A stretch of 64,000 bases of DNA from positions 8,214-72,213 of the forward strand of contig CAKORG010000001.1 in the NCBI GenBank assembly GCA_934101495.1. Reading direction: 5' to 3'. This stretch comes from an uncultured Bacilli bacterium. Its GTDB lineage: Bacteria; Bacillota_I; Bacilli_A; RF39; UBA660. Shown piece after piece: positions 6,850 to 25,595 of the stretch. Every line of letters starts with the position of its first letter. Position 1 is the first letter of the stretch. Under the pieces are notes generated by a model. That model was given only the letters and a program-made list of their open reading frames with translations. It made no database searches and had not been told where the DNA came from. The translations under genes were made by a program, and so were the position numbers.

Positions 6850-6880
6850 TATAAAATCCCTCTTTAAAAAATTTAAGCTT

Positions 6881-6909
6881 ATAATAACACATTTTTATAA
6901 AAACTACAA
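6881..6909 (-). promoter_or_regulatory. sigma-70-like promoter for the 144-aa gene: -35 TTGTAG, 17-bp spacer, extended -10 TGtTATTAT
   Basis: Minus-strand sequence cTTGTAGtttttataaaaatgtgtTATTATaagc... followed by RBS AAGAGGGA and ATG 6849. Confidence 0.45.
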
Positions 6910-6933
6910 GAAAAAATAGTTTTCACTAATTCT

Positions 6934-7467
6934 TTATTTTAAAATACCATATCCAAATTTAATATTGTCAAAGAATAAAAAATTATGTAATGGATAAAAA
7001 GTTAATATTATAAATAAAATCATTCCTAAGGCAATGATAATAACTGGTAATATGTTAATATTTAATTCTTCACTTTGAAGTATTTTTAAACTAATAAGTT
7101 CCATTAAGGCATAAACAATTAACATTAAGCTAATTGATACAAACATGGACTCACCGATAATCTTGTAAATAGGAATAAAAATAATTAAATACATAATTAC
7201 ACCAAGTAATGATTTAACCATACTACTTATGTAAAAATTGTTTATTTTAATTTTAAACTTATGATATAAAATAAATTCAAGAACTGATGAAAGTAATAAA
7301 CAATAATAAATTATTTTCATATGTTCCCAGATACTTTCATTTACTGGAAAGAATAAAGCAAAGAAATTATTGGGCAATAAATCATACATGAAATGCCATA
7401 AATAAGATAGTAAAAAAAGAAAAACAACATTAATTATTTTTATTTTCTTAATAGTCATAATAGTCAC
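6934..7467 (-). CDS. small polytopic membrane protein (about 5 TM), family unassigned
   Basis: 177 aa, almost entirely hydrophobic helices; conserved-looking FPVNESIWEHMK segment; located between scpB and the 144-aa family gene. Confidence 0.45.
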   Translation of the reverse strand: MTIMTIKKIKIINVVFLFLLSYLWHFMYDLLPNNFFALFFPVNESIWEHMKIIYYCLLLSSVLEFILYHKFKIKINNFYISSMVKSLLGVIMYLIIFIPIYKIIGESMFVSISLMLIVYALMELISLKILQSEELNINILPVIIIALGMILFIILTFYPLHNFLFFDNIKFGYGILK

Positions 7468-9737: not shown

Positions 9738-9850
9738 CCCATTTCATTCTATTTAAATTATACTATAACTTCCATTTATAAACAAGAAAAATTAAGTAAT
9801 TTAGTCAAAGAAAAATACTTAATTAATTTAATTTAAGTATTTTTTCAATT

Positions 9851-10372
9851 CTATTTAATTAAACCATTTTGAACGTATTTTGTTTCATTTATGACGACGA
9901 AAGCATCTGGGTCATTGCTTCTTACTATGTGAGTTAGAGTTTTTAGTTTTGACTTATTAAGCTGAATCATTAGCATCGTTTTATCCTCATTATCTTGAGG
10001 ATTTTTTAAATCTATTGCTGATACTCCAAAACCTGCTTTTCTGATTTTTTCAAGCATCTTTTTAACTTTACTTGTTTTTGTAGTAACCTGAACACCGATT
10101 AAGCCATCCACAAAGTTATTTGATATAAAACCTCCTAAATAAGTTCCTGTTGCATACCCAGCCGAATAACATATTGGGATTAGTATTGATGTTACATCAG
10201 TTGTTAGTGCTTCTCTGGCTACTAAAAACCAAATAAGGACTTCAAAGAAAGCTATAAGAGCTGGAGTAAATCTTCGGCCTCTTACTACTAAGACAGTTCT
10301 AATTGTTCCCAAAGAAACATCCATAATTCTCGCAAAAAATATTTTTATACATAGTAATAGCATATTTAACAC
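9851..10372 (-). CDS. UPF0316 / DUF2179 family membrane protein
   Basis: 173 aa; N-terminal ARIMDVSLGTIRTVLVVRGRR...FFEVLIWFLVAR closely resembles the UPF0316 (B. subtilis YebE-like) signature. Confidence 0.7.
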   Translation of the reverse strand: MLNMLLLCIKIFFARIMDVSLGTIRTVLVVRGRRFTPALIAFFEVLIWFLVAREALTTDVTSILIPICYSAGYATGTYLGGFISNNFVDGLIGVQVTTKTSKVKKMLEKIRKAGFGVSAIDLKNPQDNEDKTMLMIQLNKSKLKTLTHIVRSNDPDAFVVINETKYVQNGLIK

Positions 10373-10376
10373 ATCC

Positions 10377-10643
10377 TTATATATTTATTATTATGGTCAG
10401 AATTATTAAAATTACAAGTACAATTGATATAATTATTAGTCCAAGAACTTTATTTTCCTTGACATCTCGATATTCTATATTATTTTGATGTCCATATTTT
10501 TCACTTAATAATGTAATTCTTTCAGCATTTTTATCTTTCATCTTGTTTTGATAATTTATTTGTTTTTGGTCCATTAATGCACCACAGAATTTACACACCA
10601 TTCCATCATTTGGAAGTGGATTTCCACATCTATTACATTTCAT
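10377..10643 (-). CDS. zinc-ribbon domain protein with a C-terminal TM anchor
   Basis: 88 aa; CNRCGNPLP...CKFCGAL (two CxxC pairs) then hydrophobic LGLIIISIVLVILIILTIIINI; 4-nt overlap with the upstream 671-aa gene. Confidence 0.55.
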   Translation of the reverse strand: MKCNRCGNPLPNDGMVCKFCGALMDQKQINYQNKMKDKNAERITLLSEKYGHQNNIEYRDVKENKVLGLIIISIVLVILIILTIIINI

Positions 10644-10646
10644 ATT

Positions 10647-12662
10647 TTACTCCAATGTTTGTCCTATATAGGTAATTTTAGCATATCCGTTTCCGCTGTG
10701 ACCCGTCTCATCAACTCCTAAAGGAGATTTGAAAGAGCTATTTCCAGCAATTGTTTGAGCACTAGTTAATTGATAATCTATATTAAGTAAATATCCATTT
10801 GGAAGAGTTGCTGAATTGGTATAAACGAAACCAGAGCCACCACCACCGCCACTTGCAGCGTATTGATTTGTGCCTGACGTTGTTGCGTATCCACCGGCTC
10901 CGCCACCATACCAGCCGCCACCGCCGCCGCCTGAGTTACTATAGTTATTTGATGTTGATCTTGCATTTCCTGCAGCTCCACCTTGAAAAAAGGTGCCATC
11001 ATTACCATTATAAGAACCATAAATACCTTTACTTCCGCCAGATGTTTGCGTTCCACCTTTTGCAGTAGATTCCTCTGCATAAGCAGTTCCATTGCCGCCG
11101 TTAAGCCCGCCGCCGTAACCACCGGCTCTACCAGAATAATTAGCTCCGCCACCGCCACCGCCGGCAACAATAACACGAGCTAGTATATCGTCATTATTAA
11201 TTCTTATATCAGTTCCACCACCACCGGAACCTGCCATTTTATAGCCTGAGTTTCCACCACCATTTACACCACCGGTCTTAACGCTTGCTGTTGTAGTACC
11301 GGCAGCGCCTTGACCACCAGTGTGTATAAATACGTTATCGCCCTTATTTAAGTATACTGTTCCAACAGAATATCCACCTTTGCCCCCAGGATAAGTTGTT
11401 GGAGAAGAATAAGCATATCCACCTTCAGCACCCCAAACTTCTAATTTGTAATAACCGGAAACTTCGATTAATTTTGATTGAACAGCACTTGAATAGTCAA
11501 ATAATCCGTTATAAACATAATCTGTTACTGATGTTGTAGCTAAAATGCCAGACCCGTTGCCAGATGAGTCTACAGAATATGCTTTAAATGTAAACTCAGT
11601 AGCAGGAGCTAAATTTTCAAATGTATGGTTTGTTGCAGTACTTTCCACATATGTATCACCATTATCTTTAGAATAATAGTATTTAGCGGGTGTAAGCCCT
11701 ACATTACTATTTGTTAAATTTATAGTTACATTTTGTCCACTTACAATATTTTGCATACTTTCAAGAATTGGACCAGAACCGACATTTAAATATGCCACAC
11801 AGTTAGTTCTGTTTGTTGCTGAAATAACAACCTTTTGATTTTGTATAGACATTGTTGAAGTTCCTGTACATGCAGATTTACTTCCAAGTTCGTAGAAGTT
11901 ATTGGTTGGTATTTTGTCTACTTCAAAGTATGTCGTTGAACCTTTCTTAGATTGAACAAATATTTTTAGCGCAATATCTACATCCATTGCATCCATATAT
12001 GCCTTACATATCGCACCTTTTTTTTTGGCATTAACCGTAAAGTTTTGTTTATCTGTGTTGTATGTTACTATTGTATCTGTTACATGAGTATTTAAATCAT
12101 TTGCATAAACGCAGTATGACATACTACTATTAAATTCATATCCAACTGATGGAAGCTCTGTTGTTTCGAGTTTTGTATAAACTCCATTTCCTACTCCATC
12201 ACTATCGACATTTTCAGCATAAACTTCTAGTGTTATATCTAAACTTGCAGTTGACTTGAAATATAAATAGCAAACGTCATGACCAGTAGCATCAATACTT
12301 GCATCAAATGAATCAGAATTATATGTTATCTTTGCTCCGTTTGTACAATAGCTCATGCTTGCTTCATATTTATAACCAGCTTTTGGTATGTATGGGTATA
12401 CAGAATAGCTATTAACCCCATTTCCATTAGTATCCCTATCTTCAGCCATAATTCTAATATCCAAATCAGGAATTTTTGGAGTTGTACTAAGCAAAATTGG
12501 GGTTGTATCAATAACTTGATAAAATGCATATGAAACTATTAATCCTACACATGCTAAAATGACTACTATTGCTATACTTACTAGTAGGATTTTATATTTA
12601 TTTAAAAGATTTGTTACATCTTTATTTAAGGCTTTTTTTAATTTTACGCGTAATTTATCCAT
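10647..12662 (-). CDS. membrane-anchored surface protein with internal about 85-aa repeats, an FN3-like segment and a C-terminal glycine-rich domain (ALK/LTK-type Gly_rich-like)
   Basis: 671 aa; N-terminal TM ILLVSIAIVVILACVGLIV; duplicated motif (AEDRDTNGNGVNSYSVYPYIPKAGYKYEASMSYC / AENVDSDGVGNGVYTKLE...SMSYC); C-terminal 250 aa with runs such as VIVAGGGGGGANYSGRAGGYGGGLNGGNG. GGN codons give a local GC spike and spurious overlapping ORFs. Confidence 0.7.
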   Translation of the reverse strand: MDKLRVKLKKALNKDVTNLLNKYKILLVSIAIVVILACVGLIVSYAFYQVIDTTPILLSTTPKIPDLDIRIMAEDRDTNGNGVNSYSVYPYIPKAGYKYEASMSYCTNGAKITYNSDSFDASIDATGHDVCYLYFKSTASLDITLEVYAENVDSDGVGNGVYTKLETTELPSVGYEFNSSMSYCVYANDLNTHVTDTIVTYNTDKQNFTVNAKKKGAICKAYMDAMDVDIALKIFVQSKKGSTTYFEVDKIPTNNFYELGSKSACTGTSTMSIQNQKVVISATNRTNCVAYLNVGSGPILESMQNIVSGQNVTINLTNSNVGLTPAKYYYSKDNGDTYVESTATNHTFENLAPATEFTFKAYSVDSSGNGSGILATTSVTDYVYNGLFDYSSAVQSKLIEVSGYYKLEVWGAEGGYAYSSPTTYPGGKGGYSVGTVYLNKGDNVFIHTGGQGAAGTTTASVKTGGVNGGGNSGYKMAGSGGGGTDIRINNDDILARVIVAGGGGGGANYSGRAGGYGGGLNGGNGTAYAEESTAKGGTQTSGGSKGIYGSYNGNDGTFFQGGAAGNARSTSNNYSNSGGGGGGWYGGGAGGYATTSGTNQYAASGGGGGSGFVYTNSATLPNGYLLNIDYQLTSAQTIAGNSSFKSPLGVDETGHSGNGYAKITYIGQTLE
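12018..12026. repeat. T9/A9 homopolymer inside the coding region of the 671-aa surface protein gene (encodes KKK)
   Basis: cacc-ttttttttt-ggca seen directly; coding-strand A9 in ...NAKKKGAICK... Confidence 0.8.
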
Positions 12663-12831: not shown

Positions 12832-13266
12832 ATGTTATTTGATGATAATTTGGGTTTCTTTGGATTTACAATACCTAAAGAAGTAAAATTTGATAAAACT
12901 AATATGCTTACTAGTGTACCTACTGGATTTACTAAAGGAAATATGTTTCAAGATGAATATATTCCTTATAAAGATTATAAGCCAGCTAAAATAGTAGCTA
13001 AAAATGAACAAGAAGCATTACTTCTAGATATTATGGCATTATCCTTTGCAATTAATGATTTAAATATTTACTTAGATTTACATCCGGAGGATACTGAAAT
13101 GTTAAAAAAATTCAAAGAACTTACAGAAAAGTCGTGTGAAAAAGAAATGGAGTATGTAAAGTGTTATGGTCCACTTGAAGTTATGGATAATGAATCTTTA
13201 AACAAATTTGAATGGATTAATAACCCTTGGCCATGGGAAAATACCGGAGGTACTAAATATGTTTAA
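12832..13266 (+). CDS. cotJB: spore coat protein CotJB-family protein with an additional N-terminal region (possibly CotJA-like)
   Basis: 144 aa; C-terminal half (LDIMALSFAINDLNIYLDLHPEDTEMLKKFKELTEKSCEKEMEYVKCYGPL...NPWPWEN) matches the CotJB hallmark including the PWPW motif; RBS GGGAGG upstream; 8-nt overlap with cotJC. Confidence 0.7.
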   Translation: MLFDDNLGFFGFTIPKEVKFDKTNMLTSVPTGFTKGNMFQDEYIPYKDYKPAKIVAKNEQEALLLDIMALSFAINDLNIYLDLHPEDTEMLKKFKELTEKSCEKEMEYVKCYGPLEVMDNESLNKFEWINNPWPWENTGGTKYV

Positions 13267-13819
13267 ATATGTAAAACATTTATCTTATCCAATTAGTGTT
13301 ACTAAAAAAGATTTAAAAATGGCAAAATTAATTATTACACAAGTTGGTGGATATGCTGGAGAACTTGGGGCAGCACTTAGATATTTTCATCAAAAATTTA
13401 CAATGCCAGATGAAAAAGGAAGAGCGCTTTTGAACGATATTGCCACTGAAGAAATAGGTCATTTAGAAATGGTTGCTACAATTGTTTCACAACTTATGGA
13501 AAATGCTACAATTGAAGAAATTAAAGAAGCTGGACTTGAAAGTTTCTACACTGAACATGGGAAAGGAGTATTCCCAATGAGTGCTGATGGTGTTGCTTTT
13601 GACGCATCAACATTTGCAGTTACTGGTAACCCACTTGCTGATTTAGTTGAAGATATGGCAGCAGAACAAAAAGCTAGGGTTGCTTATGAACATCTAATTG
13701 ATTTGGCTACAGACCCAAAAGTTATTGAACCACTTCTATTCTTGCGTCAAAGGGAAATTATTCACTTCAATCGTTTTGAAGAACTTTATAACTATTATAA
13801 GGAAAAAGGATATAAATAA
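13259..13819 (+). CDS. cotJC: spore coat protein CotJC (manganese-catalase / ferritin-like family)
   Basis: Strong similarity to CotJC (KLAKLIITQVGGYAGELGAALRYFHQKFTMPD...TEEIGHLEMVATIV...AAEQKARVAYEHLIDL). Start revised to ATG 13259 (MFKYVKHLSYPISV...) with RBS GGAGG at 13246..13250; the track start at 13208 is an upstream in-frame codon. Confidence 0.85.
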   Translation: MFKYVKHLSYPISVTKKDLKMAKLIITQVGGYAGELGAALRYFHQKFTMPDEKGRALLNDIATEEIGHLEMVATIVSQLMENATIEEIKEAGLESFYTEHGKGVFPMSADGVAFDASTFAVTGNPLADLVEDMAAEQKARVAYEHLIDLATDPKVIEPLLFLRQREIIHFNRFEELYNYYKEKGYK

Positions 13820-13915: not shown

Positions 13916-16159
13916 ATGGCAAAGAAGAAAAAAACTAAAGAAAGTAATAATAGCAGTTATAGTGTTGAACTTACTGGTCTTATCCTTATACTTATAGGTA
14001 TAATTGGTTTTGGCTTTGGCTTTATTGGTTCCCTGCTTAAAAAGTTTGCAATATTTCTTGCTGGCACTTGGTGGATAATTATATTAATATCCTTAATAGT
14101 GCTTGGGCTTTACATGCTTTACAAAAGAAAAATGCCAAAATTTACTAGTTCTAAATTAATTGGATTATATATTTTTTTCCTTATTTTATTAGTTGCTAGC
14201 CATTTTGAATTTTTATCTATAACTCAGAATCCGAAAGAAATTATTATGGAAACATATAATAATTTTATGGAAAGAATATCATCAATAAATGCATCTAATG
14301 CTTTAAATACATCTGGTATTACTACAGTTGTAATTGGTGGTGGTTTTATTGGAGCTTTATTTACTGCCCTATTTTATGGATTATTTGGTAAAACTGGCAC
14401 TATTGTTATTTTAGTTTCACTTGGCATATTTGCATCTGTTTTAACATTTAATTTCAATTTATCAAATATTTTTGCTAAAATATTTAGTTTATTTAAAAGA
14501 AAGAAGAAAGATAAAGTTGAAACTACAAATGAGGAACCAATTCCAATTAGTAATAGTAATGATATAAAAGAAATATCTGAAGTTAAACCTTTAGAAAAAG
14601 AAAAAATTATTATTACTAGTATGGAAGAATTAAAAACTAAACCTATTAATCAAGAATCATTAGAAAAAAATGAATCTAAACAAGAAGAAGCTGTTGATAA
14701 TGGTGATGAATATTATAGATTACCAAAATTTAGTGAAGTATTTGATCCATTAAAACCTAAAAAAGTTAATAGTACAACATTTACACAAAGTAATAAAGAA
14801 ATTCTTGAAAGAGTTTTAAAAGATTTTGGTATTGCTGCCAAAGTTGTGGAAATTCATATTGGACCAGCAGTTACAGAATATGAACTTACTGTTCCACCAG
14901 CTACTAAAGTAAATAGAATACTAAGTATTGATAAAGAAATAGCTTTGGCACTTGCTGCTAAAGATGTAATAATACAAGCACCTATTCCTGGAAAAAGTAC
15001 AATTGGTATTGAAATACCAAATCCAAGTATTTCAAGTGTTACTTTAAGGGAAGTTCTTGAAAGTCCACAAAACTTAAAAAGTGATGCTAAAATATGTGCA
15101 GCTTTAGGTAAGGATATAATGGGTACTCCAAAAGTATTTGACTTAACAAAGATGCCTCACCTTTTAGTTGCTGGTTCTACTGGTTCAGGTAAATCTGTTT
15201 GTATCAATGGTATTATTGCTTCAATATTAATGCGTTATAAACCAACTGAAGTAAAACTTGTTCTTGTTGACCCTAAAAAAGTTGAACTTACAAATTATAA
15301 TGGTATTCCTCACCTACTTTGTCCAGTTGTAAGTGACCCTAAAAAAGCAAGTTTAACACTACAAAGAGTTGTTACAGAAATGGATAGAAGATTTCAAACA
15401 TTTAGTGATAAAGAAGTAAAAAATATTTCTGGATATAATGAAATGATTGATAAATATAATAAAAAACATCCAGAAAGTCCACAAAATAGAATGCCCTATA
15501 TAGTTGTTATAATTGATGAACTTGCGGATTTAATGCTTGTTGCATCTAAAGAAGTTGAAGATTCAATTACTCGTATTACTCAACTTGCACGTGCAGCTGG
15601 TATCCACCTTATTGTTGCAACTCAAAGACCATCAACCGATGTCATTACTGGGTTAATCAAAAATAATATTCCATCACGTATTGCTTTTGCTGTTGCATCA
15701 CAAATTGACTCTCGTACTATTCTTGACCAAAGAGGTGCTGAAAGACTTCTTGGTAAAGGTGATATGTTATATTTTCCAATGGGTGAATCTGCACCAACAA
15801 GAATTCAAGGGTGCTTTATAAATGATGATGAAATTAAAAGATTAATAGATTTTTGTAAAAATCAAGGTACTGCTAAATATGATCAAACATTTGAAAATGT
15901 TAGTCAAAATACTTCAAGTGGTTCAGGTTCTTCTAGCGCTGGTGGTGAAGATGATGATGCATATAATGATGTTGTGGAATTTGCTATTCAAACAGGCAAA
16001 ATTAGTGCTTCACTAATTCAAAGAAGATTTAGGTTTGGTTATAACAGAGCTGCTAGAATGATGGATCTGCTTGAAGCTCGTGGCATAGTTGGACCTCAAA
16101 ATGGTTCTAAACCTCGTGAAGTTTTAGTAAAGTTAGAGAAAAATAATGTCGAAGAATAA
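13916..16159 (+). CDS. ftsK: DNA translocase FtsK/SpoIIIE
   Basis: N-terminal 4-TM region, linker, motor domain with Walker A GSTGSGKSVCINGI, C-terminal gamma domain (RFRFGYNRAARMMDLLEARGIVG). Start revised to ATG 13916 (MAKKKK); the track start at 13907 is a GTG. Confidence 0.9.
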   Translation: MAKKKKTKESNNSSYSVELTGLILILIGIIGFGFGFIGSLLKKFAIFLAGTWWIIILISLIVLGLYMLYKRKMPKFTSSKLIGLYIFFLILLVASHFEFLSITQNPKEIIMETYNNFMERISSINASNALNTSGITTVVIGGGFIGALFTALFYGLFGKTGTIVILVSLGIFASVLTFNFNLSNIFAKIFSLFKRKKKDKVETTNEEPIPISNSNDIKEISEVKPLEKEKIIITSMEELKTKPINQESLEKNESKQEEAVDNGDEYYRLPKFSEVFDPLKPKKVNSTTFTQSNKEILERVLKDFGIAAKVVEIHIGPAVTEYELTVPPATKVNRILSIDKEIALALAAKDVIIQAPIPGKSTIGIEIPNPSISSVTLREVLESPQNLKSDAKICAALGKDIMGTPKVFDLTKMPHLLVAGSTGSGKSVCINGIIASILMRYKPTEVKLVLVDPKKVELTNYNGIPHLLCPVVSDPKKASLTLQRVVTEMDRRFQTFSDKEVKNISGYNEMIDKYNKKHPESPQNRMPYIVVIIDELADLMLVASKEVEDSITRITQLARAAGIHLIVATQRPSTDVITGLIKNNIPSRIAFAVASQIDSRTILDQRGAERLLGKGDMLYFPMGESAPTRIQGCFINDDEIKRLIDFCKNQGTAKYDQTFENVSQNTSSGSGSSSAGGEDDDAYNDVVEFAIQTGKISASLIQRRFRFGYNRAARMMDLLEARGIVGPQNGSKPREVLVKLEKNNVEE

Positions 16160-16200
16160 GAAAATTATTTAAAAATATAAAATAATGTGTTATATTATAA

Positions 16201-16797
16201 ATGAAAGGTATGGTGTGTATGGCAAATACAAATGATATAAAAAAAACAAAAGAAGAAGTTAATGAAATGAAAGAAGCTAAAAATATATTTGCTTCTAAAA
16301 ACTTTTTAATTATTTTAGGAGTTGTACTTTTATTAATTCTGATTATATTTTATGTTTACAGAGTTAATAAAACTAATGAAACAGAAAAATATAGTACAAG
16401 TTATTTAGTCAGTACTGGTACAGTAAGCTTAGAAATTAAGAATTTAGATGAAGTTAATCAAATTCTTACTGAGTCACCTAATGAATATTTTGTTTTAATT
16501 ACTTATACTGGTGATAAAGATACTTATAAATTAGAAACAGGCTTAAAAACTATTATTGATAAATATAAATTAAGTGACTCTTTCTATTATATAAATGTAA
16601 AAGATATGTTAAATGAAGATAATTACTTAACAAGATTAAATAATGCTTTTGGAACAGATAAAATTACTAAAATTCCTGTAATACTTTTTTATAGAGATGG
16701 TAAAGTTGTAAATACAGTTCATAGAAATGATAATAATGTTATAAACGCTGGAGATTTTCAAAAGCTTTTAGATATTTATGAATACCAAGGCCAATAA
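16201..16797 (+). CDS. membrane-anchored thioredoxin-fold protein lacking a CxxC active site
   Basis: 198 aa; TM FLIILGVVLLLILIIFYVY; C-terminal PVILFYRDGKVV resembles thioredoxin-family beta-strand motifs but no CxxC is present. Confidence 0.5.
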   Translation: MKGMVCMANTNDIKKTKEEVNEMKEAKNIFASKNFLIILGVVLLLILIIFYVYRVNKTNETEKYSTSYLVSTGTVSLEIKNLDEVNQILTESPNEYFVLITYTGDKDTYKLETGLKTIIDKYKLSDSFYYINVKDMLNEDNYLTRLNNAFGTDKITKIPVILFYRDGKVVNTVHRNDNNVINAGDFQKLLDIYEYQGQ

Positions 16798-16808
16798 TGG
16801 CCTTTTTT
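16789..16808 (+). terminator. rho-independent terminator (GGCCA-ataa-TGGCC + T6) overlapping the stop codon of the upstream gene
   Basis: Hairpin ggccaataatggcc followed by tttttt at 16803..16808; the TAA stop sits in the loop. Confidence 0.6.
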
Positions 16809-16821
16809 AAGGAGTGAAATT

Positions 16822-17340
16822 ATGTTAAATGTTGTTTTATTTGAGCCGGAAATACCTCAGAATACTGGTAATATAATGAGAACTTGTGTGGCAACTAATA
16901 CTACTCTACATTTAATTAAACCTTTAGGTTTTAAAGTTGATGATGCTTCACTTAAAAGAAGTGGTGTTAATTATATAGATAAATTAAAGTGGTATGTATA
17001 TGAGGGTTGGGAAGATTTTTTAAGTAAGAATCAAAATGGTACATTTTATTTTTTAACGAGATATGGTCATAAACCACATTCTAGTTTTGATTATAGTAAC
17101 TTAAATGAAAATATCTATTTTGTTTTTGGAAAAGAATCCACAGGTATACCAAAAGATATTTTGAAACCCCACATTGATAAATGTATGAGAATGCCTATGA
17201 CTTCTAATGTACGAGCTCTCAACTTATCTAATACAGTTGCCATAATGCTTTATGAAGCTTTAAGACAAAGAAATTATAATGGACTATTATTTGATGAGCC
17301 ACATAAATCAAAAACTGAAATCGAAGATTTTGAAGAATGA
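16822..17340 (+). CDS. trmL: tRNA (cytidine/uridine-2'-O)-methyltransferase TrmL (SpoU/TrmH class)
   Basis: 172 aa; MLNVVLFEPEIPQNTGNIMRTCVATNTTLHLIKPLGF... typical TrmL/CspR N-terminus; RBS AAGGAG. Confidence 0.85.
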   Translation: MLNVVLFEPEIPQNTGNIMRTCVATNTTLHLIKPLGFKVDDASLKRSGVNYIDKLKWYVYEGWEDFLSKNQNGTFYFLTRYGHKPHSSFDYSNLNENIYFVFGKESTGIPKDILKPHIDKCMRMPMTSNVRALNLSNTVAIMLYEALRQRNYNGLLFDEPHKSKTEIEDFEE

Positions 17341-17423
17341 GATTTACTTATTCTTTTTTTCTTTACATCAATTTGACAAATACCAATGAAAATGATACAA
17401 TGTTAGTGATGCGGGGGACATTT

Positions 17424-18842
17424 ATGAATGAAATGAGAGGATCAGAGTTAAAAGTTTTTTTTGAAAATCAGCCTGACGAATTTATTATGGATTTCTTTGT
17501 ATTTCAAAATGAACTTGAACTTGATGTGTTTTTAATAGGAATTTTATCAATTAAGAACGAAGACCTTAGATATAAAATGTTTGATAAATATTCTGTTTTC
17601 TTTAGAGAATTTGACTTAAAAGCTTTTAAAAAACTATTTACGGATGAAGAACTAGCTGATATTGCTTATGAGTTTTTGGATAAAATGAAATCATTAAGCA
17701 TTCATTTAAAAGCAATATTTGTTGTCGCTACACAAAATGAAGAATTATTATTAAAATACTTTAGTGAAGCTATAACAGATGAAGATAAAATGGAATATAT
17801 TAAGAATGTACATTATCGCTTTGGATATTTTAGTGAGTTAGAGCAATATTTAATAAGTAACTTACATGACGAAAGATTAAAATATTTATTGAATTCAAAT
17901 AGTCCCGATAAAAAGGAAATGTATTTAACCGAAGGATGCAAAGTATCTTCACAATCCATTTCATCAGGAATAACCATAGGTGTTGAATTAGAAACAACGA
18001 ATGAAAATATTAGTTTATTTAAAAATATGCCTTGTTTATTAGGAAGATTTGATGTGAAGAGTGATACTTCGGTTAAAAGCGGATTTGAAATTGTTTCACC
18101 AATAATGCATTATAATCAAAAAGATTTAGCAGAACTCGAAGCAGTTTGTACTGCTTTGCAAAAGTGTGGATTTGCTACTGACGATACATGTGGGGGTCAT
18201 ATTCATATTGGTGCTAGTTATCTCAAAACTAAAGAAGATTATGCAATGTTGTTATATTTATTTACCAATTGTGAAGATATAATTTATAAAATTTCTGATA
18301 GAAGTTGTTCTCAGAAAAGATTAAGTATTGAAAAATATGCTAGTAAAATTAAAGATAGACTTTTGATTTCAATATCTAATGGAGATTTAGATAATGCTGA
18401 ATCTTTTTCCGATTATGTTAAAGCTTTAAAGAACATTATGAGGACTAGACATTGTGGTCTTAATCTTCAAAATATAAATAAACCTGAAAAGAATACTATT
18501 GAGTTTAGAATGGCAAATGGAGAAATTGATTATAAAGAATTGCTTGCAAACATTAATCTTTTTGCTAGACTTATTCAAATTTCACACGATTTAAATACTT
18601 TCGATGAAAATTATTATAAGGTTAAATATGCACAAAAAATTGGGCAAGAACCTGATGAAGAAAGACGTCTTGAATTTTTGTTAGCTTTATTATTTGATGA
18701 CGAAAAAGAAAAAGAAATTTATCGTGAGAGATATGCAACAAATTCTAGGATTATGGAGCTTATTGATGGTGATATCATTGCTCCAGCACATGAGTTAATT
18801 GGTATGAGTCGCGAAAGAAAGTTGTGTAAGAAGACAATATAA
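17424..18842 (+). CDS. Amidoligase_2 (GCS2/glutamine-synthetase-like amidoligase) family protein with an about 190-aa N-terminal alpha-helical extension of unknown function
   Basis: C-terminal 280 aa carry Amidoligase_2-like motifs (ITIGVELETT..., GFEIVSPIMHY..., CGGHIHIG..., TIEFRMANGEIDYKELLANINLFARLI). Preferred start ATG 17424 (MNEMRGSEL...) preceded by RBS GGGGGA at 17413..17418; alternative upstream ATG 17337 overlaps the trmL stop (ATGA). Confidence 0.6.
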   Translation: MNEMRGSELKVFFENQPDEFIMDFFVFQNELELDVFLIGILSIKNEDLRYKMFDKYSVFFREFDLKAFKKLFTDEELADIAYEFLDKMKSLSIHLKAIFVVATQNEELLLKYFSEAITDEDKMEYIKNVHYRFGYFSELEQYLISNLHDERLKYLLNSNSPDKKEMYLTEGCKVSSQSISSGITIGVELETTNENISLFKNMPCLLGRFDVKSDTSVKSGFEIVSPIMHYNQKDLAELEAVCTALQKCGFATDDTCGGHIHIGASYLKTKEDYAMLLYLFTNCEDIIYKISDRSCSQKRLSIEKYASKIKDRLLISISNGDLDNAESFSDYVKALKNIMRTRHCGLNLQNINKPEKNTIEFRMANGEIDYKELLANINLFARLIQISHDLNTFDENYYKVKYAQKIGQEPDEERRLEFLLALLFDDEKEKEIYRERYATNSRIMELIDGDIIAPAHELIGMSRERKLCKKTI

Positions 18843-18843
18843 A

Positions 18844-18867
18844 AAGCCTCATAGGGCTTTTTTTTAT
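18844..18867. terminator. bidirectional rho-independent terminator between convergent genes (AAGCCT-cata-GGGCTT + T8)
   Basis: Hairpin seen directly after the amidoligase stop; the A/T flanks allow function on both strands. Confidence 0.55.
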
Positions 18868-18876
18868 TTTATCAAA

Positions 18877-20034
18877 TCATTGTTTCAGTAAGGATTTTCC
18901 TCTTCCTAAGACTTTTAAATTTCTAATTATATAATCTAAAATATTTGCTTTTTTTACATCTTTTTCCACAGTTACATCAACCTCATCAATAATATTTCCA
19001 TCATCATCAATTATTTGTGCTAATCCCACTATATCGCCTTTTTTAACCGGAGCTTTTATTTTATCAACTAATAAATTAAATTTATAATTCGTAAAAGCAT
19101 CAGTATTTTTTAAAAGTTCTGTAGCGTCTTGTGCTAAAACAATGTTTGTAACATCTTTTTTTCCACGCTCTACTCTTACTTTTCCAAGTACTTCGCCCTT
19201 AGTTTTAATTATATTAATTTTATAAGTATTAAATGCATAATTTAACATTTTAACTGTATCACTACTTCTATTTTCAGTTGTATCTTCCCCCATTACTACA
19301 GATACTAATCGAAAATTATCTTTTTTAGCTGTTGCTGTTAAACAATAACCTGCAGTTTTTGTAAATCCAGTTTTAAGTCCATCAACACCTTCATAAAATC
19401 TAACTAATCGGTTGGTATTAACAAGCCAAATTCTTGAACCATCATTTTTTTCTAAATATTCTTCATATATACTTGTGTATTCTAATATTTTTGGATGTTT
19501 CAAAAGTTCTCTAGCAATAATTGACATATCTCTGGCTGTTGAATAATGCCCCTCAGCATCTAGTCCATGAGCATTTACAAAGTTGGTATTTACTGCACCA
19601 ATTTCTTTAAGTCTTTTGTTAAGCATTTCTACAAAAGCTACTTGTGAACCACCAATTTTTTCTGACATTGCTACCACAGCATCATTACCACTTGCTATAG
19701 CTATTCCTTTAAGTAAATCATGTACTGTGTAAACTTCACCAGCTTGTAAAAATACTTGACTTCCTCCCATGTTAGCTGCTTCATCACTTATTGTTACTTT
19801 ATCTTCTAGTTTTAGACTTCCATTATCTATTGCTTCCATAATTAGAAGCATGCTTCCAAGTTTTGTCATTGATGCTGGTGCTAACTTTTCATCAGCATTT
19901 TTTTCATAAAGCACTTTACCAGATAGATTATCCACTAAAATAGCACTTTTGGCATTCGGAGCAAAATCTTCTGCGGCTTTAACTCCTAGAGTTAAAAATA
20001 AAAAACTCATAATAATTAATAAAATCTTTTTCAT
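18877..20034 (-). CDS. dacF: serine-type D-alanyl-D-alanine carboxypeptidase (PBP5/DacA/DacF family)
   Basis: 385 aa; signal peptide; SxxK (ASMTKLGS), SGN (ASGNDAVVA) and KTG (GLKTGFT) motifs; PBP5 C-terminal domain. Confidence 0.85.
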   Translation of the reverse strand: MKKILLIIMSFLFLTLGVKAAEDFAPNAKSAILVDNLSGKVLYEKNADEKLAPASMTKLGSMLLIMEAIDNGSLKLEDKVTISDEAANMGGSQVFLQAGEVYTVHDLLKGIAIASGNDAVVAMSEKIGGSQVAFVEMLNKRLKEIGAVNTNFVNAHGLDAEGHYSTARDMSIIARELLKHPKILEYTSIYEEYLEKNDGSRIWLVNTNRLVRFYEGVDGLKTGFTKTAGYCLTATAKKDNFRLVSVVMGEDTTENRSSDTVKMLNYAFNTYKINIIKTKGEVLGKVRVERGKKDVTNIVLAQDATELLKNTDAFTNYKFNLLVDKIKAPVKKGDIVGLAQIIDDDGNIIDEVDVTVEKDVKKANILDYIIRNLKVLGRGKSLLKQ

Positions 20035-20072
20035 ATATACACCTTACTAATTATTATGATTATTATTTTTTA

Positions 20073-20666
20073 TTAGAACAATTTAAACTTTCTTTTTTTT
20101 ATTAATACAGCTGTTGTGCCCACTAAGCTAACTCCAATAACTCCAGGAACAATGCCTCCATCACTTTCTGGTTCATCATTATCATAAGTACACTTTCCAT
20201 CCTCTTTTTCTGCCATTTCATCATAATTTAGTGCATCTTTATCTGTACATCCCATTTTATAATAAACACAACTATCATCATTTTGATTAGCATTTCTATT
20301 ATAGTTTTTGGCTGCTTTATCCATACAACCAAATACTTTAGTTATACAGCTTCCATCATCTTTTTCTGCCGTCTTATCATAATTTAGTGCATCTTTATCT
20401 GTACAACCTTTTTTATAATAAATACAACTTCCATCATTTTGATTAGCATTCCTATTATAGTTTTTGGCACCACTATCTGTACATCCATAAATTATTTGTG
20501 GAGCACAAGTGCATGTTGGACTTAAAGTACCATCCTTACAAATAGTTCTACCATAAGAGTTACAACCCGCAACCCCACCATGATGTGAACAACAACCTTG
20601 TTGTGCATAAACTGGAAATGCTCCAACCAATAAAAAAAACAAACCTACTAAAATATACTTCTTCAT
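20073..20666 (-). CDS. secreted Cys-rich tandem-repeat protein with a C-terminal hydrophobic anchor and basic tail
   Basis: 197 aa; signal peptide MKKYILVGLFFLLVGAFPVYA; four about 26-aa units of pattern GC(T/M)D..A(K/L)NY(N/D)..A..(D/N)DGSC.Y; C-terminal GGIVPGVIGVSLVGTTAVLIKKRKFKLF. Confidence 0.6.
   Translation of the reverse strand: MKKYILVGLFFLLVGAFPVYAQQGCCSHHGGVAGCNSYGRTICKDGTLSPTCTCAPQIIYGCTDSGAKNYNRNANQNDGSCIYYKKGCTDKDALNYDKTAEKDDGSCITKVFGCMDKAAKNYNRNANQNDDSCVYYKMGCTDKDALNYDEMAEKEDGKCTYDNDEPESDGGIVPGVIGVSLVGTTAVLIKKRKFKLF
20175..20485. repeat. intragenic tandem repeat: two near-identical 156-nt (52-aa) units, each made of two 26-aa Cys-rich sub-repeats
   Basis: Near-identical nucleotide blocks starting around 20223 and 20379 (…ataatttagtgcatctttatctgtaca…) seen directly. 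Confidence 0.75.
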
Positions 20667-20716
20667 AACTTCCTACCTCTTTGTTATAAATATTTTAGCA
20701 TATTTGTTTATTTTTT

Positions 20717-21013
20717 TCAATTTAAAATATACTTAATTATATTCTTTATTTCTTTAATATCATCAATTAATAATGCCTCATTTAAGTTTTTTCTACTTTC
20801 ATAAATATGTAATTTACTTTCATATTCTTCTAACTTTTTACTTGTCTTATTAATTATATTACCTACATAACTTTTAGATACTTTTTCTAAATCCGCTATT
20901 TCTTGTAAAGTAAAATTTTCTTCATAATAAAACTTATAATATTTTTTATTTGATTCATTTAATAGTGAACCATATATATTAAAAAGCTCGCCATAATATA
21001 CAAAATCTTCCAT
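20717..21013 (-). CDS. ylxM: YlxM / UPF0122 family putative DNA-binding protein (SRP-operon associated)
   Basis: 98 aa; GELFNIYGSLLN...FTLQEIADLEKVSKSYV...EEYESKL matches B. subtilis YlxM; lies immediately downstream of ftsY as in Bacillus. Confidence 0.75.
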   Translation of the reverse strand: MEDFVYYGELFNIYGSLLNESNKKYYKFYYEENFTLQEIADLEKVSKSYVGNIINKTSKKLEEYESKLHIYESRKNLNEALLIDDIKEIKNIIKYILN

Positions 21014-21999
21014 TACATCAAATCCTTAAATAAACCATAAATATAGTTTTCTATATCAAATGGAATTAAATCTGTCATTTTTTCTCCGAGTCCTACAAAT
21101 TTAACAGGAATATTTACATCTTCCTTTATGGCAAGCACAATTCCGCCTTTAGCAGTTCCATCAAGTTTAGTTAAAACTATACCTGTGATATCAGTAATTT
21201 CTTTAAATGCTTTAGCTTGCATAATTCCATTTTGACCGGTTGTGGCATCAATTACAAGTAATGTTTCATGAGGTGCTCCGGGAATAATCTTGCCAATAAC
21301 TTTATTTATTTTTTCTAGTTCTTTCATTAAATTAACTTTATTATGAAGTCTACCTGCAGTATCAATTAAAACAATATCAGCGCCATCTTCTTTTGCTTTT
21401 AAAAGGCCATCATAAATAACTCCAGCAGGATCAGTATTTTCTTTACCATAAAATAAAGAATTAGTTCTATCTGCCCAAATTTTTAATTGTTCAACAGCTC
21501 CAGCTCTAAATGTATCACCTGCTATTAACATTATCTTTTTGCCTTCATTTTTATATTTATGGGCAAGTTTGGCAATTGTTGTGGTTTTACCTACTCCATT
21601 AACACCAACCATAAGTATAACTGTTGGTCCATCCTCAGCCATTTTTATTTTATCAGTTATAGATTCATTATTAACATATATTATAAAAAGTTCATCAACA
21701 ATAACTTCATTTAAATATTTAGTATCAGTTATATTTTCAGATTTTACTCTTTTTCTAAGTCTATCCATAAAATCCATAATGGTGTTAACACCAATATCAG
21801 CCATAATCAAAATATTTTCAAGTTCATCAAAATATTCATCATTTATTTTAGTATATTTAATACCAAGCATACTAAGTTTAGAAACAAATTCATTTCTTGA
21901 TTTTTCTAAACCTTCATCATATTTTTGTACATTTTCATCTTTTATTTCTATTTTTTCTTTTTTACTAATTATATTTTTTAATTTATCAAATAAGCCCAT
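21013..21999 (-). CDS. ftsY: signal recognition particle receptor FtsY
   Basis: 328 aa; NG domain with GVNGVGKTTTIAKLA, DTAGR, TKLDGTAKGG motifs. Confidence 0.92.
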   Translation of the reverse strand: MGLFDKLKNIISKKEKIEIKDENVQKYDEGLEKSRNEFVSKLSMLGIKYTKINDEYFDELENILIMADIGVNTIMDFMDRLRKRVKSENITDTKYLNEVIVDELFIIYVNNESITDKIKMAEDGPTVILMVGVNGVGKTTTIAKLAHKYKNEGKKIMLIAGDTFRAGAVEQLKIWADRTNSLFYGKENTDPAGVIYDGLLKAKEDGADIVLIDTAGRLHNKVNLMKELEKINKVIGKIIPGAPHETLLVIDATTGQNGIMQAKAFKEITDITGIVLTKLDGTAKGGIVLAIKEDVNIPVKFVGLGEKMTDLIPFDIENYIYGLFKDLM

Positions 22000-22065: not shown

Positions 22066-23802
22066 TTAAAACCAAATGTTTTTAACATTAACACTTGTAC
22101 TTTCTGGAATTGGATTTGGAAGTTCAAAATTAACTAATGTCGGTATTTTAAAACCTACCCCGAACACAAATGCAGCTCCTGGTGATAACGATTTAATTTG
22201 CTCAATATTAGCCATTGATACATTGGTGCTCATTGTTCTTACAATCTCTAAGTCTGCTGGGTGAAATACTCTGAATACTATAAAGTTTGCACATTGACTT
22301 AAAGAAGTCGTAGAAAGTTCACTAGGTCTTTGCGTAATAAATGTAAGAAGTGTTCCATATTTTCTTCCTTCTTTAGTAATTCTATCAAATATGCTATAAC
22401 CAATTACATTTATATCATTATCATTTTGCACATATCTATGCGCTTCTTCCAAAATAATATTGAATGACAAGCTACCTCTTTTTTCTAATGAAGTTGTATA
22501 ATTAAATAAAAGTTTACTATATATTTTAGTTAGTACTTTAGCAAAATCGTCATCAATATCGCTTAAATCTATATTTACTAAATTATTTTTAATAAACATA
22601 TCTCTTATAAATTCTTCTTTTCCAATATATTCATCAACATTAAATATGTGTTTAGTGTCACTATTTATTATACTTTGAAGTCTTGTTTTTAAAATATTCA
22701 TCTCTTTATAAATTATATCATTATTAATCGTTCCTTCACTAATAAGAGAAAATTCTAGAGCACTATATAAATCTTCAAGAGAATAACACATAGCATCTAC
22801 AATATCTATGCTTTCTAAATCTACATTTTCAAATTGTTGTAAAAACTTCATAACTTCGAAAATTGCATTCATTTTTCCAGAATCATCAATTAAAAGACAT
22901 TGCCTAAATGTTCTGTCATAGCCTGGTTGGTGTATAGTTGAATCAAGATTTAAATCTTCAGTATTATAATGAGTTAAAACTGCAATTACTTGGTCCCTGA
23001 TAGTACTCGATGATCTTCCACTTGTTAATATATCCACCAAACATTTAGCTATGATATCGTTTTTATATCTTTTAATTTCTGGGGTATTACTTTTAAATAT
23101 TTTAACTAATTTTAACGATTTTTTTAAAACTGGTAATTGATCCGGACTAGAAACTCGAAGTAATAATGCTAGATCATCAACATCTAAAAACCATGCTGGA
23201 AACTTCAGTTGAGCTTCTTTATCTTTTTTAGGTTTATTTGAAAAACTAGCAAAATTTAAACCTAAATTTTTTATATTTTTAAATGTTTCTACATATTCAC
23301 CATAGGCATCAAATAAAACTATGTGAGAATTTATGGGTTTGTTTATAAAAAATAAATTTTGAAGAATTCTAGCTACTCCACAAGATTTACCAGAACCAGT
23401 GTTGCCAATTACAGCTAAGTGATTTGCAAATATATCATTTAAAGAAACGGACACATTAAATTTTTTATATATGGCTGAGGATCCCAGTAATAGAAAGTCT
23501 TTTTGAATTTCATTTTTTCCTATGATAAGTTCAAGTTCTTCTTTATATATAACTCTAACTGGGGCTATACCACTAGGTTTCTTGACTATACCAGCATTAA
23601 ATTTGTTATTTATTATTTCACCAACTAAAAGTATTTTGGCTTCTACTTCATCTATATATATTACTTCACCAACTATTTTTCTACTATCTTCCAGAAAAAT
23701 AACGTGACATGCAATTAAACTAGATATGGCTTTTCCAGATATATTTTCAATTGTAACTTCATTGTTATTTATCCTTTTTATCTTACCAAACATAACAACC
23801 AT
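22066..23802 (-). CDS. HerA-like P-loop ATPase (HAS-barrel + DUF87/FtsK-HerA superfamily), standalone
   Basis: 578 aa; N-terminal barrel-like region, Walker A AVIGNTGSGKSCGV, Walker B/sensor region IILEEAHRYV, arginine-finger region FITQRPSEL; monocistronic with its own terminator. Confidence 0.7.
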   Translation of the reverse strand: MVVMFGKIKRINNNEVTIENISGKAISSLIACHVIFLEDSRKIVGEVIYIDEVEAKILLVGEIINNKFNAGIVKKPSGIAPVRVIYKEELELIIGKNEIQKDFLLLGSSAIYKKFNVSVSLNDIFANHLAVIGNTGSGKSCGVARILQNLFFINKPINSHIVLFDAYGEYVETFKNIKNLGLNFASFSNKPKKDKEAQLKFPAWFLDVDDLALLLRVSSPDQLPVLKKSLKLVKIFKSNTPEIKRYKNDIIAKCLVDILTSGRSSSTIRDQVIAVLTHYNTEDLNLDSTIHQPGYDRTFRQCLLIDDSGKMNAIFEVMKFLQQFENVDLESIDIVDAMCYSLEDLYSALEFSLISEGTINNDIIYKEMNILKTRLQSIINSDTKHIFNVDEYIGKEEFIRDMFIKNNLVNIDLSDIDDDFAKVLTKIYSKLLFNYTTSLEKRGSLSFNIILEEAHRYVQNDNDINVIGYSIFDRITKEGRKYGTLLTFITQRPSELSTTSLSQCANFIVFRVFHPADLEIVRTMSTNVSMANIEQIKSLSPGAAFVFGVGFKIPTLVNFELPNPIPESTSVNVKNIWF

Positions 23803-24086: not shown

Positions 24087-25565
24087 CTAAATTACTATTG
24101 CAATTAAAGTATTTGAACCTTTATTTACTATTTTAGAAACTGTGTCTTTAAGTTTATATCTTGTATTATCTGGCATCATGCTAAGTTTTGCTTGAATACC
24201 TTCTTGGACAATTGCTTCTAAACTTCTACCAAATATTTCACTTTTCCAAATACTTGATGCATCATTTTCATAATCTTTCATTAATCTATCAATTAATTCT
24301 TTAGATTGAAGTTCACTACCTATTATTGGTTCAAAAGTCGACTCGACATCTACTTTTAACATGTGAATACTTGATGCAACAGCTTTAAGTTTTACCCCAT
24401 ATCTGCTTCCTTGTTTTACAAGTTCAGGTGTTTGAAGTTTTAATTCTTTTATTCCAGGATATACTATTCCATAACCAGTACTTTTGGCCATTTTTATAGC
24501 TCCTCTTAAAGAATCCATTTCTTCTTTATCTTCTTTATAATTAGCAAATATTTTTAAAAGTCCTGCTTTAGTAGTTACCATATCTCCCATTAAAGATTTA
24601 AGTGTTTGAGTGTAAAGTTCATTTGAACTTTCTAATGTTATTGTAACAGTTCCCGTGGATGCATCTAATTCCGATATAAAGGAGTTAGATATGTATTCTG
24701 AATCACTGAAATGTTCCAATATATAGTCTACATCTTTAACTTTTTCAACACTGATTACACTTTCTTTAATCTTTTCTAAATAATGCATTTTGATTTCATT
24801 ATTACTTGGTAATACATTTACCCACTCTGGCACTTTAACCTTTATATCTAAAACTGGGAATTCATATAGTGCTGTTTTAAGTATTTCCATTATCTCTTTT
24901 TCATTCATTAATTCTGCACTTATTGGCATTACTGGCACATCATAGGTATCACTTAAGTTTCTTGCTAGTTCTTGTGTTTCAGTATTAGTTGGGTGAATAC
25001 TATTTAGAATAACTATGAAAGGTTTTCCAATAGTTTTTAATTCACTTACAACTTTTTCTTCTGCATCGAGATAAGATTCCCTTTTGATTTCACCGAATGA
25101 ACCATCTGTTGTAACAACAATCCCTATTGTTGCATGATCTTTGATAACCTTCTCTGTTCCTATTTCGGCCGCTTCAACAAAGGGAATCGCATCCTCGAAC
25201 CATGGACTTTTTACCATCCTTGGATTTCCTTCTTCATCAACAAAACCATTAGCTTCAGGAATGACATAACCTACACAATCAACTAACTTGATGCTTGTTT
25301 CGAATTCGCCGACTTTGATTGAGGCCCCATTACTTGGGACAAATTTAGGTTCAGTTGTCATGATAGTTTTACCTTGTGCACTTTGAGGTATTTCATCTAA
25401 ACATCTTTTCTTTTCATATTCATCTGTTATATTTGGTACAACTAGATTTTCTATGAATCGTTTAATGAATGTTGATTTACCTGTACGAACAGCTCCAACT
25501 ACTCCTAAGTAGATTTCACCATCCCCGCGCTTTGCTATTGATGATATAATTTTTTCTTTTTCCAT
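24087..25565 (-). CDS. spoIVA: stage IV sporulation protein A (spore coat morphogenetic ATPase)
   Basis: Very strong similarity across the full length to B. subtilis SpoIVA (GDGEIYLGVVGAVRTGKSTFIKRF..., QGSRYGVKLKAVASSIHMLKVDVES..., C-terminal GSNTLIAIVI). Start revised to the second ATG 25565 (MEKEKIISSIAKRGDG, matching the SpoIVA N-terminus MEKVDIFKDIAERTGG); the track start at 25583 is too close to the predicted promoter. Confidence 0.9.
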   Translation of the reverse strand: MEKEKIISSIAKRGDGEIYLGVVGAVRTGKSTFIKRFIENLVVPNITDEYEKKRCLDEIPQSAQGKTIMTTEPKFVPSNGASIKVGEFETSIKLVDCVGYVIPEANGFVDEEGNPRMVKSPWFEDAIPFVEAAEIGTEKVIKDHATIGIVVTTDGSFGEIKRESYLDAEEKVVSELKTIGKPFIVILNSIHPTNTETQELARNLSDTYDVPVMPISAELMNEKEIMEILKTALYEFPVLDIKVKVPEWVNVLPSNNEIKMHYLEKIKESVISVEKVKDVDYILEHFSDSEYISNSFISELDASTGTVTITLESSNELYTQTLKSLMGDMVTTKAGLLKIFANYKEDKEEMDSLRGAIKMAKSTGYGIVYPGIKELKLQTPELVKQGSRYGVKLKAVASSIHMLKVDVESTFEPIIGSELQSKELIDRLMKDYENDASSIWKSEIFGRSLEAIVQEGIQAKLSMMPDNTRYKLKDTVSKIVNKGSNTLIAIVI

Positions 25566-25595
25566 TAATCCACCATCTTTCATTTTTCTATTCTA

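Follow-up and report, generated by a model that had tools for sequence, protein, structure and literature searches.

The DNA analyzed here is a stretch of 64,000 nucleotides from an uncultured Bacilli bacterium (referred to below as the window), in which an uninterrupted open reading frame (ORF) extends on the forward strand from position 17337 to 18842. An original prediction, made from the sequence alone, had assigned this ORF to the Amidoligase_2 family, with an extra N-terminal region and with translational coupling to the upstream gene trmL. The motifs of that assignment (GVELE, FEIVSP, CGGHIHIG, IEFRMANG, and LANINLFARL) were all found within the ORF. The locus is very probably occupied by a monocistronic gene (17424-18842) encoding an intact Amidoligase_2 enzyme; the coding sequence, predicted to start at ATG 17424 of the forward strand and ending with the TAA codon at 18840-18842, specifies a two-domain protein of 472 residues (hereafter the ligase). 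The upstream neighbors are TrmL (TIGR00185, E=1.3e-57, above the cut-off) and then a membrane PedC-like/DUF6568 protein (1.4e-58), in agreement with the tRNA methyltransferase and the membrane protein named in the original prediction.

The ligase gene is predicted to have its own strong vegetative-type promoter, ribosome-binding site, and terminator. The promoter, of the SigA/sigma-70 type (17373-17401, forward strand), consists of the -35 sequence TTGACA (17373-17378), a 17-nucleotide spacer that includes a TG extension (17393-17394), and the -10 sequence TACAAT (17396-17401). With 11 of 12 matches in addition to the TG extension, it is the top promoter-like site between 16100 and 20200. This predicted promoter is located downstream of 17337, within the supposed 5' extension of 29 codons (17337-17423, forward strand) that opens with an ATGA overlap with the trmL stop and is read as spurious and untranslated. 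The putative ribosome-binding site GGGGGA (17413-17418, forward strand) is located 5 nucleotides upstream of ATG 17424. At the other end, a terminator scan identified a bidirectional intrinsic terminator (18841-18872, both strands), common to the ligase gene and the convergent dacB-like gene, with an RNA fold of -9.1 kcal/mol followed by a U-run. Between trmL and the ligase gene, a terminator-like hairpin of trmL (17332-17362, forward strand) was recognized, with a 10-bp stem (17332-17341 paired with 17347-17356) that takes in the TGA stop of trmL, and with a U-run after it. Its predicted fold is -8.5 kcal/mol (z=-3.7; none of 200 shuffled sequences folded equally well), and the equivalent hairpin in a relative (locus L001) is -9.8 kcal/mol; the simple terminator scan passed over it because of its few G-C pairs. 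An Rfam scan of 15500-21500 gave no RNA element, the lone match being a chance one below the threshold.

The promoter block (AATTTGACAAA ... TG.TA(T/C/A)AAT) is kept in all eight syntenic relatives, and so is, at the same place, the ribosome-binding block ATATGGGGGT together with the ATG. In the six syntenic relatives with trmL just upstream, the trmL stop is invariably TAA without any ATGA overlap, and the nearest in-frame stop in the syntenic relatives is located 15-93 nucleotides upstream of the conserved ligase ATG. The closest homologs (54-67% identity) are proteins of 472 residues that begin with MNE or MSE and align with the Met at 17424. Within the cluster of at least 90% identity, 12 of the 15 listed members are called as 472 residues; a member of this cluster (P0245) is identical to the translation of window positions 17424-18839, and one further assembly with this exact protein is likewise called as 472 residues. 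Since promoter, ribosome-binding site, and homologs all indicate ATG 17424, the start at 17337 is given up in favor of the alternative that the original prediction had also mentioned, GGGGGA at 17413 with ATG 17424, which is the one kept in the eight relatives. The conservation of promoter, ribosome-binding site, and ATG, combined with a trmL TAA stop without overlap in the relatives, argues against translational coupling to trmL. The letters ATGA are indeed present at the overlap, as had been stated, but their use as a start is not supported; the overlap would be an accident arising from the trmL stop, which happens to be TGA in this strain.

It is therefore hardly probable that a 501-residue protein is made from 17337 and is functionally tied to trmL in tRNA-related amide ligation. 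This model could appeal to the overlap itself, to some gene callers that give 501 residues, and to the presence of trmL as the upstream neighbor in all eight closest-clade loci (six of them distinct) that retain the upstream flank. The two genes are, however, separated by the hairpin with its U-run and by the near-consensus promoter, the relatives with trmL lack the overlap and yet keep promoter, ribosome-binding site, and ATG, and the homologs start at the 17424 Met. In addition, trmL adjacency is confined to one synteny group, with no other group having trmL beside the ligase and with the longer relatives in unrelated contexts, and among the closest relatives an identity of 94-99% for TrmL contrasts with 64-66% for the ligase. 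The corrected start and the independent promoter are of importance for annotation and for the design of expression constructs.

The family assignment was confirmed by profile search. PF12224 (Amidoligase_2) matched residues 243-412 of the 501-residue ORF with E=6.8e-19 and 69.1 bits against a cut-off of 22, and was the sole Pfam match of the ligase reported at E<=1; PF12224 was also matched by the long ligase homologs described below. Among PHROGs, families annotated as 'amidoligase enzyme' matched the ligase (phrog_2443 at 2.6e-20). An NCBIfam scan of the ligase protein and a PDB sequence search with the ligase family profile gave no match. PF12224 reportedly comprises predicted amidoligases that are encoded by phages, plasmids, and conjugative elements. 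The catalytic domain (residues 181-395; 17964-18608, forward strand) is predicted to adopt the alpha/beta fold of the Amidoligase_2/glutamine-synthetase type and carries the motifs G186-V-E188-L-E190, E222 (in FEIVSP), H259-I-H261 (in GGHIHIG), and E360-F-R362-M..N365-G-E367. Across 44 homologs, the window protein among them, no change is seen at E188, E190, E222, H259, H261, E360, R362, N365, and E367, the positions at which metal and ATP are expected to be bound in a fold of this type. The catalytic domain is followed by a C-terminal extension (residues 396-472; 18609-18839, forward strand), modeled as three helices plus a terminal beta-hairpin, which matches no known family but carries a conserved motif LLxxLFD..E..IY..RY..N, with L423, F424, Y433, R436, and N440 invariant in the same alignment. 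From the lack of an obvious signal peptide or membrane segment, the ligase is probably cytoplasmic.

The AlphaFold2 model of the 472-residue protein, built with the 44 homologs, was of high confidence (predicted local distance difference test, pLDDT, 90; predicted template modeling score, pTM, 0.88), the pTM value implying a fixed arrangement of the domains, and showed the expected combination of a glutamine-synthetase-like catalytic part and a helical N-terminal part. Together with the profile match and the full set of motifs, the model upholds the Amidoligase_2 identity. Upon Foldseek comparison with the PDB, the best solved structure was YbdK (1r8g, E=7e-5), followed by glutamine synthetases, plant glutamate-cysteine ligase, and Dop. 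The likeness to the YbdK/GCS2 proteins (1r8g, 1tt4; probability 1.0) extends to the predicted ATP-dependent ligation of carboxylate and amine, but with 12% identity and a template modeling score of about 0.4 it is a likeness of fold only; there is no Pfam GCS2 (PF04107) match and no PDB sequence match for the ligase, and YbdK is a single-domain protein weakly active on small molecules. By sequence, the ligase is thus not assigned to the GCS2/YbdK group. BFVD models of phage 'amidoligase enzymes' matched the catalytic domain with E=5.8e-10 over about 290 columns. To the PF12224 family as a whole, the ligase is therefore alike in profile (well above the cut-off), motif set, fold, and superposition on phage models, but the regions matched in the phage proteins (about 280-300 columns) cover neither its N-terminal domain nor its C-terminal extension.

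The N-terminal domain (residues 1-167; 17424-17924, forward strand) is modeled as 11 helices in an alpha-solenoid-like, helical-repeat arrangement, and was predicted with similar confidence when modeled alone (pLDDT 88). No match was found in Pfam, NCBIfam, or PADLOC, in line with the description of a helical domain without recognized family, and Foldseek comparison of this domain alone with the PDB gave only annexin, COPI, and TPR-like noise (best E=0.48, not significant). The helical fusion was correctly described, but its length of about 190 residues is reduced to about 167-180 with the start at 17424. The N-terminal region is fused to the ligase in every homolog, and the whole protein folds as one unit; a separate N-terminal ORF, which would have spoken against the fusion, was not seen.

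Most homologs are longer, with 557-590 residues, the extra ~100 residues forming additional N-terminal helices, and the N-terminal domain of the window protein aligns with these longer N-termini. In a rough neighbor-joining tree of the catalytic domain, the forms of 456-472 residues constitute one clade inside the long forms, which are in turn located inside still longer ones. This nesting indicates that the window protein is a reduced form. When a profile of the N-terminal region was compared with 1.84 billion representative proteins, a total of 129 matches were obtained. The ligases among them range from 400 to 1127 residues with two to five matched stretches, while the non-ligase proteins range from 900 to 1880 residues with up to eight matched stretches. 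The C-termini of these large non-ligase repeat proteins fall into at least three unrelated groups, and a Pfam scan of their C-terminal parts gave no match; nothing was found either in a PDB sequence search with one such C-terminal part. One group carries the motif GSTGRGTN.PG..DFDF, which resembles the pol-beta signature, the tentative designation 'nucleotidyltransferase-like' being based on this motif. No other ORF in the window matched the N-terminal or catalytic profile. The N-terminal domain is thus a reduced helical-repeat array common to other protein families, a feature that, together with the high rate of evolution described below, goes beyond the original prediction.

Three giant proteins of the repeat-array type (P0124, P0128, and P0149) have 1453-1664 residues with 6-8 matched repeat stretches. 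P0124 (L070 8001-12995, forward strand) is cargo of an element with integrase, Mob_Pre relaxase, and Fic genes. The C-terminal region of these giant proteins, without Pfam match, contains the pol-beta-nucleotidyltransferase-like motif, in P0128 as GSTGRGTNKPGEGDFDFMMRID.

The order FtsK, PedC-like, TrmL, ligase, convergent DacB-like, YlxM, and FtsY is kept in metagenome-assembled genomes labeled as uncultured Bacilli, 'Tenericutes', Erysipelotrichaceae, and Clostridium sp. CAG:609, mostly from human-gut samples. Within this conserved neighborhood, the ligase gene is under purifying selection yet diverges about ten times faster than its flanks. The ligase protein is 64-66% identical to its counterparts in the closest genomes, against 81-99% for eight flanking genes (93-99% for FtsK, TrmL, DacB, FtsY, and HerA; 81-91% for PedC-like and YlxM). 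In comparison with relative L008, the number of nonsynonymous substitutions per site (dN) is 0.22 for the ligase and 0.007-0.095 for the neighbors, that of synonymous substitutions (dS) is 0.91 and 0.17-0.75, and the dN/dS ratio is 0.24 and 0.02-0.19, respectively; within the ligase, the N-terminal domain has a ratio of 0.26 and the catalytic domain one of 0.21. Over seven comparisons the dN/dS of the ligase is 0.23-0.37, with the catalytic part lowest in five of the seven. The high dS of the ligase could be due to older alleles exchanged by recombination or to weak codon bias.

The ligase gene has the highest dN within the locus and a dN/dS that exceeds those of most neighbors three- to tenfold; these values, the loss of partners seen in relatives, and the reduced N-terminus might be taken as signs of a decaying gene under relaxed constraint and without current function. 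Such decay is very unlikely, however, given a dN/dS well below 1, a reading frame that is intact in all nine syntenic genomes at dS values of up to about 2, the invariance of all the catalytic residues, the retention of promoter and ribosome-binding site, and a predicted fold of high confidence.

The five nearest identified genes on the left side of the ligase gene encode CotJB, CotJC, FtsK, PedC-like, and TrmL, and the five on the right side DacB-like, a Cys-rich secreted repeat protein, YlxM, FtsY, and HerA-like. AIG2/gamma-glutamyl cyclotransferase (GGCT) is described as a partner of the amidoligase family (PMC11318856). Neither AIG2/GGCT nor GAT-II or NTN-hydrolase was found among these ten genes, to which the partner check was confined, the rest of the window not being profile-scanned for partners; the absence of typical amidoligase partners reported in the original prediction holds to this extent. 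The lack of a GAT-like thiol peptidase/NTN hydrolase or AIG2/GGCT neighbor sets the ligase apart from the described PF12224 systems, but it is a feature of context and not a requirement of the domain. Unlike the phage and mobile-element members, the ligase gene is chromosomal, with native content of guanine plus cytosine (GC) and conserved synteny. A phage or mobile origin of the window ligase was considered and rejected: the GC content of the gene (about 27%) equals that of its flanks, its IMG/VR relatives are only 22-30% identical and match in the catalytic domain alone, and the synteny is kept.

The neighborhoods of relatives were compared by neighbor clustering, covering 26 loci. One family recurred across unrelated synteny groups, a protein of ~555 residues with an N-terminal RNK[LI]AHGN motif of HEPN-like type (R-x4-H). 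Its genes adjoin long-form ligase genes in two unrelated synteny groups, often as two plus two, the copies of HEPN-like and ligase genes being present as 1+1, 2+1, 1+2, or 2+2 (loci L006, L016, L018, L021, L023, L024, and L032-36); an island with two genes of each kind spans L035 1616-8734. A domain shared between the N-termini of the HEPN-like proteins and the ligase was discarded after BLASTP showed no similarity. An obligate HEPN-like/ligase pair was also rejected, because the HEPN-like family occurs without ligases and its orientation varies; in one case without amidoligase it is located between restriction-modification and GmrSD genes, and in another in an unrelated context. The two families are therefore read as sharing variable, defence-type islands without forming an obligate pair. 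The window locus and the island of L035/L064 do not represent the same chromosomal site, only the PedC-like gene recurring between them.

The ~555-residue HEPN-like family is abundant in its own right, with a C-terminal part of ~400 residues without assigned family, and forms tandem paralogs beside long-form amidoligases. Representative positions are L006 9714-11405 (reverse strand), L033 5273-6946 (forward), L035 1616-4949 (forward), and L066 6001-7677 (forward). Elsewhere, a HEPN-like gene is located directly downstream of an island of RE_AlwI, GmrSD, and methyltransferase genes.

A gene of the peptidoglycan-peptidase type directly adjoins the ligase gene in four synteny groups, raising the question of a cell-wall enzyme whose substrates, to be modified or recycled, would be the stem peptides of peptidoglycan or their precursors in the cytoplasm; it might, for instance, attach an amine to the free carboxylate of D-Glu or of a diamino acid. 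The neighbor is S11 DacB-like in the window group, where it is convergent, and in the L019 group, where it is co-directional and 46% identical; VanY, divergent from the ligase gene, in L006/15/16/18; and Big_2 plus NlpC/P60-like in L021/23/28/33/35. On the other hand, no such neighbor is present in the other contexts checked (L014, L022, L026, L027, and L029), the NlpC/P60 match of 18.3 bits is below the Pfam cut-off of 23, and VanY and DacB occur together in L019, so that the adjacencies may have been inherited as synteny and need not have arisen independently. The orientations also differ, the predicted cytoplasmic location of the ligase is at odds with the peptidases' site of action outside the membrane, and core wall enzymes evolve slowly, unlike the ligase gene. 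Taken together, a cell-wall role appears improbable.

As to the reaction, enzymes of the glutamine-synthetase/GCS2 superfamily form an acyl-phosphate from ATP and a carboxylate and transfer the acyl group to an amine. By analogy of fold, the window enzyme should perform the same amide ligation: a carboxylate would be activated as an acyl-phosphate with ATP and Mg2+ or Mn2+, and an amine would then attack it to give the amide bond. The 11-helix stack would act as the substrate-selecting module, and the substrate would be macromolecular, the likeliest being the carboxylate of a protein or peptide, which would make the enzyme a covalent modifier. We tentatively favor this interpretation, namely a covalent modifier that recognizes its macromolecular target through the helical domain and has its roots in a family related to conflict, while keeping it short of an even chance. 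The window gene would be a chromosomally fixed singleton from a fast-diversifying family, whose members in related gut Bacilli are located in variable islands, as tandem paralogs, and next to HEPN-like genes; this setting weakly suggests an origin in inter-genomic conflict, either defence or toxin control.

Two known systems are useful for comparison. The pupylation enzymes PafA and Dop (9cku, 5lrt) are carboxylate-amine ligases of the glutamine-synthetase-like fold that act on proteins, indicating that this fold can modify proteins; the fold matches to the ligase are weak (E=0.03-0.1), there is no sequence similarity, the substrate-binding elements are unrelated, and the ligase has neither a gene for a Pup-like tag nor proteasome genes. 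In HEPN-MNT toxin-antitoxin pairs, an enzyme covalently modifies the HEPN toxin; these pairs serve only as an analogy, the HEPN-like genes of ligase relatives being found also alone and without fixed orientation. To conflict proteins composed of a repeat array plus an enzymatic head, the ligase family is similar in the fusion of variable-number helical repeats to different enzymatic domains, in the occurrence of relatives as tandem paralogs by HEPN-like genes and, in one case, on a mobilizable element near Fic, and in the presence of the HEPN-like family in a restriction-modification/GmrSD island. It differs in that the window ligase has no partner, no PADLOC match, and no NTPase or known sensor domain.

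Several observations weigh against a macromolecular target and a conflict-related origin. Small molecules are the substrates of the enzymes with the closest solved folds (YbdK, glutamate-cysteine ligase, and glutamine synthetase), and no experimentally characterized PF12224 member was found in the literature on PF12224, amidoligase, and HEPN. The window ligase lies among housekeeping and sporulation genes, and it gave no match in PADLOC-DB 2.0 at E<=1 (nor did three long homologs at E<=0.1). A tblastn search with four HEPN-like proteins detected nothing in the 64-kb window, and the HEPN-like annotation itself (precomputed PF18736) is weak, being below the threshold in our own Pfam and PADLOC scans. 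Given its occurrence without amidoligases and in varied orientation, the association of the HEPN-like family may reflect only a shared variable region. A profile made solely from the short forms barely reaches the repeat proteins, the homology being transitive through the long forms. Finally, a high dS can also reflect low expression and weak codon bias, and not conflict.

The same fold relationships, the occurrence of the ligase as a single gene, with a promoter of constitutive appearance, in a housekeeping region, and its stable presence in all syntenic relatives could be explained instead by a small-molecule ligase that links a small carboxylate to an amine or amino acid, to give a gamma-glutamyl-type or other peptide-like metabolite, with the helical domain serving oligomerization or regulation and having no part in target selection. 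We regard such a ligase as unlikely, though deserving more weight than a cell-wall role. No metabolic, transporter, or cyclotransferase partner is located nearby; the tenfold rate, the variable repeat number, and the tandem paralogs in relatives are all unusual for a metabolic enzyme; and C-terminal domains of unrelated kinds are found joined to this repeat array.

An extended form of the interpretation as a modifier of macromolecules, put forward here as a speculation to which we give no better chance than to the small-molecule ligase, is that of a hitherto undescribed modular family of uncultured gut Bacilli. In this family a variable array of ~26-residue helical repeats (as in P0137) would be the target-recognition module, and would be combined with interchangeable nucleotide-dependent heads: Amidoligase_2, an unclassified head with the pol-beta-nucleotidyltransferase-like motif G-S-x10-D-x-D, and at least two further unclassified types. 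Its members would be fast-diversifying, tandem, and located in variable or defence islands and on mobilizable elements; the amidoligase members would modify proteins in defence or toxin control, for instance by adding an amino acid to a target carboxylate, and the window would hold a copy domesticated as a singleton. Should the repeat array indeed be a target-recognition module common to other heads, covalent protein modifiers of a new architecture would have to be added to the bacterial conflict systems; no description of a repeat array combined with an amidoligase was found in the literature searched. A report on an 'amidoligase-like' protein of Klebsiella concerns an ATP-grasp enzyme and is irrelevant to PF12224.

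As far as literature searches reach, none of the members of PF12224, a large family to which phages and mobile elements contribute many proteins, is biochemically characterized. The window ligase is a chromosomal, stably inherited, and (from its predicted promoter) apparently constitutive member from abundant uncultured Bacilli of the human gut, some clusters holding hundreds of member sequences. Its confident predicted structure and its separable candidate substrate-binding domain offer a tractable entry to what PF12224 ligases modify.

Additional observations were made on the ligase locus and its flanks. In L004, genes for a flavodoxin-like protein, an aldo-keto reductase, a MerR regulator, and an LCM methyltransferase (9493-12376) are located between the amidoligase and dacB, marking the 3' side of the ligase gene as an insertion-tolerant spot. 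In L031, a contig labeled Muribaculaceae, an amidoligase homolog (5752-7107) is split into three short ORFs of 146, 125, and 134 residues; the homolog is probably a pseudogene, but it may also be an artefact of assembly or binning.

The Cys-rich neighbor on the right side (20073-20666, reverse strand) is a protein of 197 residues without Pfam match, predicted to be secreted and membrane-anchored, with a Cys-rich start and four tandem repeats of ~27 residues (GC[TM]D..A.NY...A...D.SC.Y); it is present in L009 (77%) and, in part, in L012, and absent from L001, L008, and L010. Farther downstream, ftsY and spoIVA enclose a solitary gene for a HerA-type ATPase of 578 residues (22066-23802, reverse strand; Pfam DUF87, 5e-20; PADLOC HerA PDLC04102, 3e-104), near which no SIR2, DUF4297, or NurA partner was seen. 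In relatives, this ATPase is 86-94% identical, and an extra HTH_3 gene, not present in the window, is found beside the L001 copy. Sporulation genes flank the locus on both sides (12832-13819 and 24087-25583 in the window; cotJB, cotJC, spoIVA, and the gene for the DacB-like S11 carboxypeptidase), as also in L001 and L004, so that the organism looks like a spore-forming Firmicute in spite of the 'Tenericutes' labels on some related assemblies.

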